Of a stretch of DNA of 64,000 nt, positions 42,201 to 60,784 are shown piece by piece. This DNA comes from Naegleria gruberi (lineage: Eukaryota), in assembly GCA_000004985.1 (NCBI GenBank), contig GG738888.1; one strand, written 5' to 3'. Numbering within the stretch: position 1 is the stretch's first letter; each line of letters starts with the position of its first letter. The notes under the pieces are model-generated. The model had not been told where the DNA came from. It made no database searches and was given only the letters and a program-made list of their open reading frames with translations. The translations under genes were made by a program, and so were the position numbers.

Positions 42201-43110
42201 CCATGCCAAAAGTACACAGCCAATCATCTTGAAACATTAATAAACTTTTATTAGTATTATTGTAGATGTACTATATAAATTATTTCGTCTTGTTTCGTTG
42301 AAATCATGAAGATTTGGATTTTGCTGTTTTTCATTAAATTTCACATCACCTACACCATATTTGTTGATGTAAGCTAGACTAGTTACATGTACATAATCAA
42401 TGGTTGATTCTCTAATCATGTTTTAGTGTTGTTTTGTGTATTTAGGATTTTGAAATCTTGAGAATTATCCTGAGGTTATTCTTCATATAAATATGATTCC
42501 TCACTTCATGATATGAGGAGGGATTGATATCATGATTATTTGGAAGTGTTGTACAAATATTCAATGTACATCATCTTTGGATATCCATCAATAGTAGAAT
42601 AGTAATTTTATTGTTTGAAATTTTAATCATCATCAAGAAATTTAATATCATCATCCTTGGTCAAATTTCAAAGCAATAAATACATCTCGGATGTTTTTAG
42701 AACAGGTTAATTTGTTGTTCTAATAGTATTTAAATAGTATTCCGCAAGTTTACTCTTTAAAATTATTTTTATTTGGCTCAAAGTCGATTTTTCATCAAAC
42801 TCTACACATCTTGTTCAGAATGGTAACAATTTATGTGGGGTCAATTTTGGGGATTGGATTCTTGTCTTCATTGGTATGGATTTACATACACCATACTCAT
42901 CCCTACTTTCTTCAATAGTATGGTCATTTTGGAGGTTTCATCAATAACCACGATTGGAGCAACCAACAATAAACTAGTGTTTTCCATCAATATACTTACA
43001 CCTTTTATTTGTTTTCCATCAATATACTGAGTATTTATTTAATTATTACATGTTGTATCGTAAGTCTTGTATCGGAATACATCAAGATCATCGATATACT
43101 GGTGTGTACA

Positions 43111-46100
43111 TNNNNNNNNNNNNNNNNNNNNNNNNNNNNNNNNNNNNNNNNNNNNNNNNNNNNNNNNNNNNNNNNNNNNNNNNNNNNNNNNNNNNNNNNN
43201 NNNNNNNNNNNNNNNNNNNNNNNNNNNNNNNNNNNNNNNNNNNNNNNNNNNNNNNNNNNNNNNNNNNNNNNNNNNNNNNNNNNNNNNNNNNNNNNNNNNN
43301 NNNNNNNNNNNNNNNNNNNNNNNNNNNNNNNNNNNNNNNNNNNNNNNNNNNNNNNNNNNNNNNNNNNNNNNNNNNNNNNNNNNNNNNNNNNNNNNNNNNN
43401 NNNNNNNNNNNNNNNNNNNNNNNNNNNNNNNNNNNNNNNNNNNNNNNNNNNNNNNNNNNNNNNNNNNNNNNNNNNNNNNNNNNNNNNNNNNNNNNNNNNN
43501 NNNNNNNNNNNNNNNNNNNNNNNNNNNNNNNNNNNNNNNNNNNNNNNNNNNNNNNNNNNNNNNNNNNNNNNNNNNNNNNNNNNNNNNNNNNNNNNNNNNN
43601 NNNNNNNNNNNNNNNNNNNNNNNNNNNNNNNNNNNNNNNNNNNNNNNNNNNNNNNNNNNNNNNNNNNNNNNNNNNNNNNNNNNNNNNNNNNNNNNNNNNN
43701 NNNNNNNNNNNNNNNNNNNNNNNNNNNNNNNNNNNNNNNNNNNNNNNNNNNNNNNNNNNNNNNNNNNNNNNNNNNNNNNNNNNNNNNNNNNNNNNNNNNN
43801 NNNNNNNNNNNNNNNNNNNNNNNNNNNNNNNNNNNNNNNNNNNNNNNNNNNNNNNNNNNNNNNNNNNNNNNNNNNNNNNNNNNNNNNNNNNNNNNNNNNN
43901 NNNNNNNNNNNNNNNNNNNNNNNNNNNNNNNNNNNNNNNNNNNNNNNNNNNNNNNNNNNNNNNNNNNNNNNNNNNNNNNNNNNNNNNNNNNNNNNNNNNN
44001 NNNNNNNNNNNNNNNNNNNNNNNNNNNNNNNNNNNNNNNNNNNNNNNNNNNNNNNNNNNNNNNNNNNNNNNNNNNNNNNNNNNNNNNNNNNNNNNNNNNN
44101 NNNNNNNNNNNNNNNNNNNNNNNNNNNNNNNNNNNNNNNNNNNNNNNNNNNNNNNNNNNNNNNNNNNNNNNNNNNNNNNNNNNNNNNNNNNNNNNNNNNN
44201 NNNNNNNNNNNNNNNNNNNNNNNNNNNNNNNNNNNNNNNNNNNNNNNNNNNNNNNNNNNNNNNNNNNNNNNNNNNNNNNNNNNNNNNNNNNNNNNNNNNN
44301 NNNNNNNNNNNNNNNNNNNNNNNNNNNNNNNNNNNNNNNNNNNNNNNNNNNNNNNNNNNNNNNNNNNNNNNNNNNNNNNNNNNNNNNNNNNNNNNNNNNN
44401 NNNNNNNNNNNNNNNNNNNNNNNNNNNNNNNNNNNNNNNNNNNNNNNNNNNNNNNNNNNNNNNNNNNNNNNNNNNNNNNNNNNNNNNNNNNNNNNNNNNN
44501 NNNNNNNNNNNNNNNNNNNNNNNNNNNNNNNNNNNNNNNNNNNNNNNNNNNNNNNNNNNNNNNNNNNNNNNNNNNNNNNNNNNNNNNNNNNNNNNNNNNN
44601 NNNNNNNNNNNNNNNNNNNNNNNNNNNNNNNNNNNNNNNNNNNNNNNNNNNNNNNNNNNNNNNNNNNNNNNNNNNNNNNNNNNNNNNNNNNNNNNNNNNN
44701 NNNNNNNNNNNNNNNNNNNNNNNNNNNNNNNNNNNNNNNNNNNNNNNNNNNNNNNNNNNNNNNNNNNNNNNNNNNNNNNNNNNNNNNNNNNNNNNNNNNN
44801 NNNNNNNNNNNNNNNNNNNNNNNNNNNNNNNNNNNNNNNNNNNNNNNNNNNNNNNNNNNNNNNNNNNNNNNNNNNNNNNNNNNNNNNNNNNNNNNNNNNN
44901 NNNNNNNNNNNNNNNNNNNNNNNNNNNNNNNNNNNNNNNNNNNNNNNNNNNNNNNNNNNNNNNNNNNNNNNNNNNNNNNNNNNNNNNNNNNNNNNNNNNN
45001 NNNNNNNNNNNNNNNNNNNNNNNNNNNNNNNNNNNNNNNNNNNNNNNNNNNNNNNNNNNNNNNNNNNNNNNNNNNNNNNNNNNNNNNNNNNNNNNNNNNN
45101 NNNNNNNNNNNNNNNNNNNNNNNNNNNNNNNNNNNNNNNNNNNNNNNNNNNNNNNNNNNNNNNNNNNNNNNNNNNNNNNNNNNNNNNNNNNNNNNNNNNN
45201 NNNNNNNNNNNNNNNNNNNNNNNNNNNNNNNNNNNNNNNNNNNNNNNNNNNNNNNNNNNNNNNNNNNNNNNNNNNNNNNNNNNNNNNNNNNNNNNNNNNN
45301 NNNNNNNNNNNNNNNNNNNNNNNNNNNNNNNNNNNNNNNNNNNNNNNNNNNNNNNNNNNNNNNNNNNNNNNNNNNNNNNNNNNNNNNNNNNNNNNNNNNN
45401 NNNNNNNNNNNNNNNNNNNNNNNNNNNNNNNNNNNNNNNNNNNNNNNNNNNNNNNNNNNNNNNNNNNNNNNNNNNNNNNNNNNNNNNNNNNNNNNNNNNN
45501 NNNNNNNNNNNNNNNNNNNNNNNNNNNNNNNNNNNNNNNNNNNNNNNNNNNNNNNNNNNNNNNNNNNNNNNNNNNNNNNNNNNNNNNNNNNNNNNNNNNN
45601 NNNNNNNNNNNNNNNNNNNNNNNNNNNNNNNNNNNNNNNNNNNNNNNNNNNNNNNNNNNNNNNNNNNNNNNNNNNNNNNNNNNNNNNNNNNNNNNNNNNN
45701 NNNNNNNNNNNNNNNNNNNNNNNNNNNNNNNNNNNNNNNNNNNNNNNNNNNNNNNNNNNNNNNNNNNNNNNNNNNNNNNNNNNNNNNNNNNNNNNNNNNN
45801 NNNNNNNNNNNNNNNNNNNNNNNNNNNNNNNNNNNNNNNNNNNNNNNNNNNNNNNNNNNNNNNNNNNNNNNNNNNNNNNNNNNNNNNNNNNNNNNNNNNN
45901 NNNNNNNNNNNNNNNNNNNNNNNNNNNNNNNNNNNNNNNNNNNNNNNNNNNNNNNNNNNNNNNNNNNNNNNNNNNNNNNNNNNNNNNNNNNNNNNNNNNN
46001 NNNNNNNNNNNNNNNNNNNNNNNNNNNNNNNNNNNNNNNNNNNNNNNNNNNNNNNNNNNNNNNNNNNNNNNNNNNNNNNNNNNNNNNNNNNNNNNNNNNN

Positions 46101-46634
46101 NNNNNNNNNNNNNNNNNNNNNNNNNNNNNNNNNNNNNNNNNNNNNNNNNNNNNNNNNNNNNNNNNNNNNNNNNNNNNNNNNNNNNNNNNNNNNNNNNNNN
46201 NNNNNNNNNNNNNNNNNNNNNNNNNNNNNNNNNNNNNNNNNNNNNNNNNNNNNNNNNNNNNNNNNNNNNNNNNNNNNNNNNNNNNNNNNNNNNNNNNNNN
46301 NNNNNNNNNNNNNNNNNNNNNNNNNNNNNNNNNNNNNNNNNNNNNNNNNNNNNNNNNNNNNNNNNNNNNNNNNNNNNNNNNNNNNNNNNNNNNNNNNNNN
46401 NNNNNNNNNNNNNNNNNNNNNNNNNNNNNNNNNNNNNNNNNNNNNNNNNNNNNNNNNNNNNNNNNNNNNNNNNNNNNNNNNNNNNNNNNNNNNNNNNNNN
46501 NNNNNNNNNNNNNNNNNNNNNNNNNNNNNNNNNNNNNNNNNNNNNNNNNNNNNNNNNNNNNNNNNNNNNNNNNNNNNNNNNNNNNNNNNNNNNNNNNNNN
46601 NNNNNNNNNNNNNNNNNNNNNNNNNNNNNNNNNN
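43111..46634. other. Assembly gap (3524 N)
   Basis: Run of N. By homology with the downstream copy, it hides the 5' ~5 kb of gene copy A. Confidence 1.
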
Positions 46635-59854: not shown

Positions 59855-60300
59855 ACTTGAAGATATTGATCCATCAATATGAAACTTTCACAGATTGTTC
59901 TCCTCATCAAGGGGAGTGTATTCATATATGCTACAAGTATGATATTTTGTAAATTGACTGAGATGGTATACATTCTATATGTTGAAATGTGACAATTTGA
60001 CAGATTGTTATTATTATCATACTGAATTCAATTCTAACAGACTAAAACTGATACCATATGTATAACAGCGTGATTAAACGTACATGGTAAAGTTACACGA
60101 TGATAGGATGTACTTTCGCTGAGATAGAGCGTACACTTGGATATAATCACTCTTGACATTGAACATTAACTGATTGACTGAATGAAAATATCATGAATTG
60201 TTTTTAAACTTGTATAGATGTATATAAATGGTGTACAGAATGTGTGTTATCAATTCTAGACTAATTACATATAAAATAAGTGATTTGGAGCATAGTCTTT
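59855..60300. repeat. ~430-bp dispersed repeat, copy 2 (downstream of gene copy B)
   Basis: See 51270-51700. Confidence 0.7.
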
Positions 60301-60784
60301 GATTTTATGTCAAAGTTCTATAGTAAAATGATAGAGTTGTCGACTCAATATCTACTGAGCCAATATTCATGAAATTGATACCATATGCTAATTAGAGTGT
60401 CTACATATCATGATATTAATTTCAGTGAAAATGGAGTTGTTTCCATATCTTTCAGATTTCCAGCCATTCCATTGAAATACCACCATGTACTATCTACCGG
60501 ATGTATTTCTTGAAATGAAATTATATAATTTGATGAAAGTACACTTTATTTGAGATGTAGAACTCGATATTATCATTTATTTTGAGATTGGTAACTTTTC
60601 CTATAGTGTCATCCTTAATTGTCTTAATTGACCAAAAGAGGTAAAGGAGAGATTTCAAAACATAAAATAAATTATATTTTCGAGATGTACTAATGATTTC
60701 CAATCGATTGATATGTATTTTGTTGATTGAGGATTTGGTTCTCTATATTCAAGATTTCCTCCTGATCCTCCAAAGGGGATCCTC

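Follow-up and report, generated by a model that had tools for sequence, protein, structure and literature searches.

The window, that is, the whole 64,000-nucleotide stretch of DNA analysed here, comes from Naegleria gruberi NEG-M and carries two copies of a large gene on the same (+) strand, 8.2 kb apart in the scaffold and separated by joins that consist of N gaps. Copy B (52219–58320, + strand) is the complete gene NAEGRDRAFT_71165 of 1843 amino acids, with six exons at 52219–52443, 52712–52834, 52879–53037, 53078–53560, 53739–53999 and 54040–58320, whose ends are accurate to a few nucleotides. Copy A (46635–50095, + strand) is represented by the 3′ part of its last exon with the stop codon (50093–50095). 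It is annotated as the 1071-aa partial model NAEGRDRAFT_71164, which is cut by gap 1, and its sequenced part corresponds to amino acids 692–1843 of copy B. A literature search found no publication on either gene.

The window ends in a telomeric array of 72 (TTTGGG) units (63568–64000, + strand; 98% perfect), with the G-rich strand running 5′ to 3′ toward the window end, and the array occurs nowhere else in the window. TTTGGG has been published as the candidate N. gruberi telomere repeat (PMC3622300). The array starts 5.2 kb beyond the stop codon of copy B, and no notable open reading frame lies in between. The gene pair is therefore subtelomeric, as the original prediction had proposed, with copy B as the terminal gene. 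The papers searched contained no account of heterolobosean chromosome-end biology.

The 1843-aa product is predicted to be a type I membrane protein that consists of a signal peptide, an NHL propeller, EGF repeats, a REJ domain, a transmembrane helix and a 44-aa tail. The only hydrophobic stretch besides the signal peptide is at amino acids 1765–1799. The REJ domain (PF02010; amino acids 988–1418) scored 72.9 bits against a cut-off of 25 (E = 2.6e-20) and covered model positions 13–446 of 452. The EGF repeats matched the EGF_Teneurin, EGF_TEN and EGF_2 models, most of them under the curated Pfam cut-offs, including the EGF_Teneurin and EGF_TEN scores. The N-terminal domain gave no direct Pfam match and 64 full-library phmmer matches, of which the best distant match reached E = 1e-23. 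The five matches checked were all NHL or TEN_NHL proteins, P0020 gave the same result, and by this homology the domain is a predicted divergent NHL β-propeller. A single-sequence AlphaFold model of it (pLDDT 37) was too poor for fold assignment, and sequence searches of the PDB gave no match. The earlier description of an EGF/β-propeller membrane protein thus agrees with the EGF repeats and the NHL-like N-terminal domain, and the REJ domain is an addition to it.

Several other modules were sought in the same protein. GPS/GAIN gave no Pfam match even at E ≤ 10, and the paralogues are unalignable in this region. A CxC motif (ITCNCNFES) near the membrane was seen by eye only. PLAT and PKD_channel gave no Pfam match either, and there is a single transmembrane helix rather than 11. 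Since Pfam matches are limited to the EGF modules and REJ, the protein has no YD-shell or toxin-like domain match. The protein most probably functions as an extracellular ligand or adhesion receptor.

To what extent the two copies agree was determined by self-BLAST. The segments 46635–50287 and 54860–58493 aligned over 3653 columns with 22 mismatches and one gap, an identity of 99.4% for substitutions only and 98.9% with the gap counted. The predicted identity of about 99.4% over about 3.65 kb, with about 20 substitutions, was thereby reproduced. In the three-way alignment, 20 of the substitutions fell in the coding sequence and 2 in the remaining 3′ flank (50096–50287 in copy A and 58321–58493 in copy B, both + strand). 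The gap is a 19-nt indel just 3′ of the stop codon (50109–50127), present in the flank of copy A and absent from copy B. The 22 differences are evenly spread along the tract (KS p = 0.23). Similarity is then lost over only a few bases at 50287/58493, a point 192 bp 3′ of the stop codon.

Beyond this edge, spacer A (50288–51273, 986 bp) has no detectable homology to spacer B. The local alignment of these ~1-kb spacers scored 22, where shuffled sequences averaged 20.5, and k-mer matches within the colinear band were as frequent as expected. Spacer A contains a perfect 17-nt tandem repeat in four units (51009–51077). The stretch from gene to the next homologous block measures 986 bp in A versus 1363 bp in B, which puts the block at distances of 987 and 1364 bp; in B, 308 bp of this are a B-specific local duplication. 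A 143-bp element on the + strand is present there in two copies, 93% identical (58469–58611 and 58777–58919; span 58469–58919), and its first 25 nt are the last 25 nt of the A/B similarity.

The homologous block, here called R, is noncoding and lies at 51274–51744 behind copy A (R_A) and at 59857–60325 behind copy B (R_B), both on the + strand. Between 51274–51706 and 59857–60289 the two are 83.1% identical, with 73 mismatches and no indel over 433 bp (p = 0.169, K = 0.19); extended to 51744/60325, identity is 81.3%. The original prediction had placed these downstream repeats at ~85%, so the diverged block stands and the figure is lower. Its diverged flanks hold for block R, but not for the ~1-kb spacers, which share no detectable homology. 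Flank identity is nonetheless below coding identity as proposed, with a 99.4% tract followed by an unalignable spacer and then an 81–83% block. Block R has the same order, the same orientation and nearly the same distance from both genes, and no further copy is present in the 58 kb of sequence in the window. It contains stops in all six frames, and its mismatches are distributed 24/25/24 by codon phase without codon periodicity, which excludes a coding function. It has no Rfam match as a known RNA, and a consensus fold from two sequences gave only 2–3 compensatory pairs, too few to be informative.

The contig ends around the two units were inspected as well. Contig X ends 32 nt into unit A (43080–43111, + strand), directly before gap 1 (43112–46634; 3523 N, an estimated length). 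Contig Y (46635–51910) begins 5 nt before the first A/B difference and ends in a CTT-rich 21-nt repeat of three units (51845–51910) directly before gap 2 (51911–51960; 50 N). Contig Z starts with the 256-bp upstream region of copy B (51963–52218, + strand), and gap 3 (60786–62906; 2121 N) lies between the end of unit B and the 660 bp adjacent to the telomeric array. The last nucleotides of X recur at the start of Z, as had been noticed: 43080–43111 and 51963–51993, the latter 256 bp upstream of the copy B start codon, match at 31 of 32 positions with one 1-nt indel (E = 2e-8 within the window). Both unit junctions thus fall in N, with gaps 1 and 2 sitting exactly at or inside them. The predicted 8.9-kb period corresponds to 51963 − 43080 = 8883, a value that includes the estimated gap length; the offset from A to B is 8225–8206 bp for the gene body and 8583 bp for the downstream block. 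Gap 1 should hold the promoter-proximal region and ~2.87 kb of the 5′ exons of copy A. That these were lost by collapse of a near-identical 5′ half is plausible, in that the ends of contigs X and Y fit the repeat boundary; if copy A equals copy B, the gap should measure 2866 bp (54860 − 51994) and not 3523.

The contrast between gene and flank was examined for its cause. Synonymous divergence in the gene (dS = 0.012) is ~16-fold lower than the divergence of block R (K = 0.19). Purifying selection thus cannot explain the contrast, which reflects age and not constraint. The proposal of gene conversion or concerted evolution is upheld as to the sharp difference in identity between gene and flank; conversion itself is the probable mechanism, inferred rather than demonstrated. 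Nine of the first ten A/B differences are non-synonymous (Fisher p = 0.005). The environmental contig L001 (ENA ERZ929261) compared with copy B had the same excess in that segment, 13 non-synonymous to 3 synonymous, close to neutral expectation. Weak constraint after the EGF repeats, rather than demonstrated positive selection, accounts for this pattern.

Contig L001 is 98.6–98.8% identical to both copies, and served to polarise the differences. A and B differ by 0.6%, whereas L001 differs from either by 1.2–1.3%. Of the 21 polarisable substitution sites, 9 have the copy A state in L001, as does the indel, and 12 have the copy B state, a polarisation that rests on a single outgroup sequence ending before the flank. 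This site pattern indicates that A and B coalesce more recently than their split from the L001 strain, a result equally expected under a young duplication or for alleles. L001 was also considered as a mosaic of A and B, which would be evidence of conversion; a hand count gave 10 runs against 11.9 expected, as for a plain outgroup. The other-strain contigs L001–L003 extend no further than 73 nt upstream of the start codon and 41 nt past the stop codon, and reach no junction.

Further relatives are distant. The cluster of near-identical proteins (90%) comprises only the two N. gruberi copies and one environmental relative, and the closest further paralogues are 24–40% identical; a surface-protein family under concerted evolution, as first proposed, is not borne out by these searches. 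The N. gruberi EGF/REJ paralogues (e.g. P0002, P0008, P0011, P0013, P0014) share a common EGF-REJ core with 24–29% identity over 30–61% of the query (E 1e-118 to 1e-29). They are very divergent, with other N- and C-terminal regions and none near-identical, and lie on scaffolds whose lengths differ from that of this scaffold. A JGI metagenome scan with the protein gave no relative, and a concatenate of all 47 stop-to-stop ORF segments that reach 40 aa in the flanks (contig X, both spacers and the telomere-adjacent piece) matched no protein in any sample.

The reading that best accommodates these results, to which we give about an even chance, is an old head-to-tail duplication in which long-tract gene conversion recently made the two transcription units alike and the 5′ 2.9 kb collapsed in assembly. 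A unit of ~8.2–8.6 kb, made up of the gene, a ~1-kb spacer and block R, would have been duplicated at the chromosome end long ago, as the K of ~0.19 in block R and the unalignable spacers suggest. One recent event of long-tract gene conversion or template-switch repair would then have overwritten the transcription unit from about −256 relative to the start codon to +192 after the stop codon. Ectopic repair is frequent in subtelomeric settings. Each copy would have gained ~10 substitutions since homogenisation, and the 5′ 2.9 kb of the copies would be identical or nearly so, such that the Sanger assembler merged both into contig Z and left gap 1. That block R keeps order, orientation and near-equal distance, with no other copy in the window, indicates homology of whole units rather than a chance repeat. 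The even spread of the 22 differences fits a single homogenising event, and the end positions of contigs X, Y and Z fit the repeat boundary. The tandem order itself is probably real, though resting on scaffolding across two gaps, since mate pairs linking the far end of Y with the beginning of Z would be expected only from a tandem arrangement. Several points weigh against this reading. Classical gene conversion tracts tend to be shorter than the one required here, which measures at least 3.65 kb and probably ~7.2 kb. Two alleles of a heterozygous diploid could be expected to differ about as much as A and B do (0.6%). Lastly, an old duplication with a neutral R should have left the 1 kb next to R alignable, yet it does not align, which implies that R is constrained or that the spacers were replaced.

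The allele-like divergence leads to an unlikely, though not negligible, alternative in which each chromosome has one copy, and contig Y is the other haplotype of the gene's 3′ half together with a structurally different allelic chromosome end, misthreaded between abutting contigs X and Z. Contig X ends in 32 nt that recur as the first 31 nt of Z, as if the two overlapped, contig Y starts where the differences start, and no separate 5′ half of copy A turned up in the database searched. Homologous subtelomeres, moreover, often differ in structure. Naegleria has been described as a heterozygous diploid in which heterozygosity is lost in patches (PMC9928731); the literature searched, to which the genome paper itself did not belong, gave no figure for the level in NEG-M. 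However, between alleles that are 99.4% identical one would not expect alignability to vanish over a few bases and similarity then to return at only 82%. A misthreaded haplotig would presumably not supply the mate pairs needed to position the far end of Y immediately before Z, and nothing would have made the assembler break at a point where X and Z simply abut. Published nanopore reads and a re-assembly made with Flye are available (PMC12695648).

Conversion becomes unnecessary if ~7.2 kb (43080–50287), comprising just the transcription unit, was copied ~0.6% divergence ago to a site 1.7 kb away, with R as unrelated dispersed or subtelomeric repeats. The near-identical segment is sharp-edged on both sides, its differences are evenly spread, the spacers would be truly non-homologous, and the right-hand breakpoint lies inside the 143-bp element that is itself repeated in B. 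But the like order, orientation and distance of R, absent elsewhere in the 58 kb, would have to be coincidence, and a simple tandem duplication would leave no non-duplicated spacer of 1.7 kb between units; we regard such a young duplication as quite improbable. Subtelomeric segments are commonly shared by several chromosome ends, and contig Y, of which 3.65 of 5.3 kb is repeat sequence and both joins are N gaps, might have been drawn in through repeat links from the paralogous subtelomere of another chromosome end. Two real copies in such a non-tandem state seem very improbable, in that contig Y neither ends in nor contains telomeric repeats, the 50-N join would imply links from its unique 1.6 kb into Z, and only two N. 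gruberi copies of the gene are annotated in the protein collection.

Old duplication with recent homogenisation is an ordinary kind of subtelomeric duplication, and a draft assembly cannot prove a tandem pair. The locus marks a collapsed or gapped region and opens no new mechanism or long-standing question. If the pair is real, it documents concerted evolution of two subtelomeric genes in a heterolobosean. NAEGRDRAFT_71164 is the truncated model of a probably complete second copy, which bears on counts of EGF/REJ receptors and on expression estimates for either copy, given that most of the gene is too similar for short reads to tell the copies apart. It is a long shot that Naegleria chromosome ends carry a receptor cassette, the NHL-EGF-REJ gene with the 430-bp block R, that is repeatedly homogenised or exchanged by telomere-proximal recombination. 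Were this true, the weakly constrained, non-synonymous-rich EGF repeats and following segment would suggest a contingency-type surface-receptor locus in a free-living amoeba, and R would be a functional element, regulatory or recombination-related, kept without indels.

Comparable chromosome-end systems are duplicated subtelomeric genes that ectopic recombination or gene conversion keeps alike, for instance the Y′ elements of yeast and subtelomeric gene families. In keeping with these, the Naegleria copies are head-to-tail, lie within ~5–20 kb of a telomere array, have sharp tract edges, and are more alike within the genome than either is to the copy of another strain. In the Naegleria locus, by contrast, there are only two copies, no interstitial telomeric repeats at the sequenced contig ends by the junction, and the cargo is a large receptor-like membrane protein rather than a helicase or metabolic gene. 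For the protein, the architectures of suREJ1, the sea urchin receptor for egg jelly, and of polycystin-1/PKDREJ provide the comparison. Like REJ-module proteins in general, copy B has a near-full-length REJ match in a large extracellular region with EGF modules, and like suREJ1 it has just one transmembrane helix and a short tail C-terminal to REJ. Its sequence identity was too low for any match in the PDB. It differs from suREJ1, polycystin-1 and PKDREJ by lacking a GPS/GAIN match and the C-type lectin, PKD, PLAT and 11-TM channel-associated regions, from polycystin-1 proper by lacking the PLAT domain and 11 transmembrane helices, and from REJ-module proteins by its N-terminal NHL propeller. 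With teneurins it shares the NHL propeller and teneurin-type EGF repeats, and relatives of its N-terminal domain carry Pfam NHL and TEN_NHL; the domain order is nevertheless reversed, with the propeller ahead of the EGF repeats, and the protein is type I instead of type II, without the YD-shell or toxin-like C-terminus of teneurins.

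The long ORF at 54004-58320 belongs to a 90%-identity cluster of three proteins, comprising N. gruberi XP_002673786 (NAEGRDRAFT_71165, 1843 aa), N. gruberi XP_002673785 (NAEGRDRAFT_71164, 1071 aa), and a protein encoded by an ENA metagenome contig. NAEGRDRAFT_71165 mapped onto 52219-58320 in six exons with 100% identity (copy B), and NAEGRDRAFT_71164 is the portion of the other copy (copy A) lying to the right of the first assembly gap; both genes of the pair are previously annotated. Self-BLAST and a three-way alignment of 46635-50287 with 54860-58493 revealed 22 substitutions and one 19-nt indel located directly past the stop codon (50109-50127). 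The similarity breaks off in the space of a few bases at 50287/58493, a point 192 bp past the stop codon. In the spacers that follow (986 bp in A, 1363 bp in B) homology was undetectable: the local alignment score equalled that of shuffled sequences, and within the colinear band matching 6- to 8-mers were as frequent as expected. Similarity returns in a block, termed R, at 51274-51706 and 59857-60289, with 73 mismatches and zero indels over 433 bp (83.1% identical; 81.3% when stretched to 471 bp), and no further sequence common to A and B was found downstream of it. The original prediction of near-identical copies with differing flanks is upheld by these alignments. The flank of copy B also contains a 143-bp element in two copies (58469-58611 and 58777-58919; 93% identical, 308 bp apart), whose first 25 nt are the final 25 nt of A/B similarity; the breakpoint therefore lies inside a short repeat. 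Discounting the 308-bp duplication in B, the distance from gene to R is 987 bp in A and about 1056 bp in B.

The divergence of the gene was compared with that of block R. Over 3456 coding bases, A and B differ by 11 non-synonymous and 9 synonymous substitutions (dN = 0.004, dS = 0.012, ratio 0.33), and the 192-bp 3' flank adds 2 substitutions and one indel. Stops interrupt every frame of block R and its mismatches fall evenly on the codon phases (24/25/24), so that the block is noncoding; its divergence is p = 0.169 (0.19 after Jukes-Cantor correction). This makes synonymous sites about 16-fold less diverged than the adjoining noncoding block, a contrast that purifying selection on the protein cannot yield. 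Coalescence times must differ between the gene segment and block R, and the claim that the gene is far more alike than its flank was confirmed. Block R itself carries 73 substitutions and no indel, with unalignable DNA on either side. It may be a constrained noncoding element, judging from its sequence; an Rfam search returned no match and a two-sequence fold was uninformative.

An outgroup was provided by L001, a 5.3-kb MEGAHIT contig (1-5299) from an unrelated ENA metagenome, which shares 98.8% identity with B and 98.6% with A. Across the 21 A/B substitution sites that it covers, L001 has the A base at 9 and the B base at 12, and it shows the A form of the indel. This split indicates that the common ancestor of A and B is younger than the one linking them to that strain, each copy having gained about 10 changes since. 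The A-like and B-like sites form 10 runs against 11.9 expected (hand count); no significant clustering, and hence no sign of a mosaic, was seen. Along the tract, the 22 A/B differences show an even spread (KS p = 0.23), the pattern that a single homogenising event should leave. L001 and two further contigs, L002 and L003 (about 907 nt), come from one ENA/Logan sample (ERR1078381, PRJEB11402) and are 98.6-98.9% identical to the gene; a close relative of N. gruberi was therefore present in that environmental sample. The breakpoints of the three contigs are at 53049/53061 and 41 nt past the stop codon.

The differences are unevenly distributed by type. Among the first ten (46640-47511 / 54865-55736, the segment after the EGF repeats), nine are non-synonymous; among the final ten, two are (Fisher p = 0.005). 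Between L001 and B, the first 1.7 kb of the last exon (54040-55736), which covers the EGF repeats and the segment following, shows 13 non-synonymous and 3 synonymous changes, against 16 and 15 in the remainder. The ratio in the 1.7-kb part is near the neutral expectation, and we conclude that constraint on this part of the ectodomain is generally weak. Positive selection after duplication was considered and not supported, since L001 versus B has the same non-synonymous excess at a near-neutral ratio.

We then inspected the chromosomal surroundings. TRF detected 72 units of TGGGTT (equivalent to TTTGGG) at 63568-64000 with 98% matches. The array occurs at this single location within the window, reaches the window end, and has its G-rich strand pointing outward. 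TTTGGG is the candidate telomere repeat of N. gruberi (Fulneckova et al. 2013, PMC3622300), so the scaffold end is a chromosome end, and the predicted subtelomeric location is borne out. From the stop codon of copy B (58320) to the array no convincing ORF was found, which makes copy B the terminal gene and copy A the penultimate one; copy B lies 5.2 kb from the telomere, estimated gap included. The duplication boundary is preceded, at a distance of about 2.5 kb, by a non-LTR retrotransposon (37446-40557), with an endonuclease-like ORF (37446-38837; Exo_endo_phos_2, 23 bits, below cut-off) and a reverse-transcriptase ORF (38845-40557; RVT_1, 83 bits). Between retrotransposon and duplication, two stretches of about 520 bp (40863-41378 / 41620-42141) form direct repeats that are 75% identical. 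Upstream of the pair are ordinary genes, including those for an ABC transporter and a myosin heavy chain, and two other EGF-containing genes. The latter, at 31938-35726 (+) and 23340-24698 (-) and within 40 kb of the telomere, encode extracellular-type proteins, one with teneurin-type EGF repeats and a fibronectin type III domain and the other with an EGF repeat and a fibrinogen C-terminal domain. An ORF at 26726-29665 (979 aa, no Pfam match) has long coding tandem repeats rich in lysine and glutamate (42 nt x16 at 28066-28761; 12/33/102-nt periods at 29156-29659).

The window, which belongs to the N. gruberi NEG-M draft assembly and is AT-rich at about 33% G+C, contains three N runs: gap 1 (43112-46634), gap 2 (51911-51960, 50 N) and gap 3 (60786-62906). 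They separate four contigs: X ends at 43111, Y covers 46635-51910, Z covers 51961-60785, and W begins at 62907. A single 351,708-bp scaffold carries the records of both N. gruberi proteins; that two copies stand in tandem, the central point, depends on how scaffolding bridged the gaps. The last 32 nt of contig X (43080-43111) match the first bases of contig Z (51963-51993) at 31 of 32 positions, reproducing the predicted recurrence on either side of the gaps. The 8.9-kb period claimed with it hinges on the estimated length of gap 1; sequenced landmarks give A-to-B offsets of 8225, 8206 and 8583 bp. Contig Y starts 5 nt ahead of where A and B first differ, and the protein collections contained no separate 5' half of copy A. 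Both observations fit the proposal that this missing half is a collapsed repeat, in which copy A 5' reads would have been merged by the assembly into contig Z; the 5' 2.9 kb are probably identical in both copies. A CTT-rich 21-nt x3 repeat (51845-51910) closes contig Y against gap 2 and probably explains the assembly break there. Spacer A also holds a perfect 17-nt x4 tandem repeat (AATATTATTAATAAATT; 51009-51077). In published work, N. gruberi has also been re-assembled from nanopore reads (PMC12695648).

The simplest account covering all observations, to which we give about an even chance, is an old tandem duplication followed by later conversion. The whole unit of gene, spacer and R would have been duplicated in tandem long ago, which accounts for R copies that are colinear and equidistant but differ by 17%. 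Later, the sequence from about 256 bp before the start codon to 192 bp past the stop codon would have been overwritten in one long conversion or template-switch repair event; the upstream edge is known solely from the 32-nt overlap, because contig Z begins there. This account is weakened by the spacers of 1 kb, which cannot be aligned although R has diverged by only 17%. Either R would be under constraint, as zero indels in 433 bp hint, or the spacers would have been replaced.

Naegleria is a heterozygous diploid (PMC9928731), and contigs X and Z might instead abut, with Y being the other allele, in which the chromosome end has a different structure. Such a haplotig would fit this diploidy and the 0.6% divergence of A and B, but similarity is lost abruptly and then resumes at 82% only, and Y is positioned upstream of Z across a 50-N gap; we regard it as rather unlikely. 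A young duplication of the 7.2-kb transcription unit alone, with R as a dispersed repeat, would need coincidence to place colinear, equidistant R copies and is less probable still. Least probable is that contig Y derives from another chromosome end. The original prediction is largely reasonable, its subtelomeric location included. The phenomenon is familiar in kind.

The 1843-aa product has an N-terminal signal peptide and one C-terminal hydrophobic stretch (aa 1765-1799) followed by a 44-aa tail, and is therefore a type I membrane protein. A REJ domain was detected at aa 988-1418 (72.9 bits, cut-off 25), and the cysteine-rich aa 500-760 gave weak EGF_2, EGF_Teneurin and EGF_TEN matches. The N-terminal 470 aa had no Pfam match; full-library phmmer returned 64 matches, the best of which, own gene fragments aside, had E = 1e-23 over several aligned stretches. 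All five of the matches checked were NHL / TEN_NHL repeat proteins, as was P0020, a relative found by word index, so that the label of EGF/beta-propeller membrane protein is correct at the level of sequence homology; a single-sequence model (pLDDT 37) did not confirm a propeller fold. No GPS/GAIN domain was detected in the product. The nearest other paralogues in N. gruberi share only 24-40% identity with it and map to scaffolds whose lengths differ from that of the pair's scaffold. The closest architectural analogue of the product is presumably suREJ1 of sea urchin, which combines EGF, a REJ module and a single transmembrane helix.
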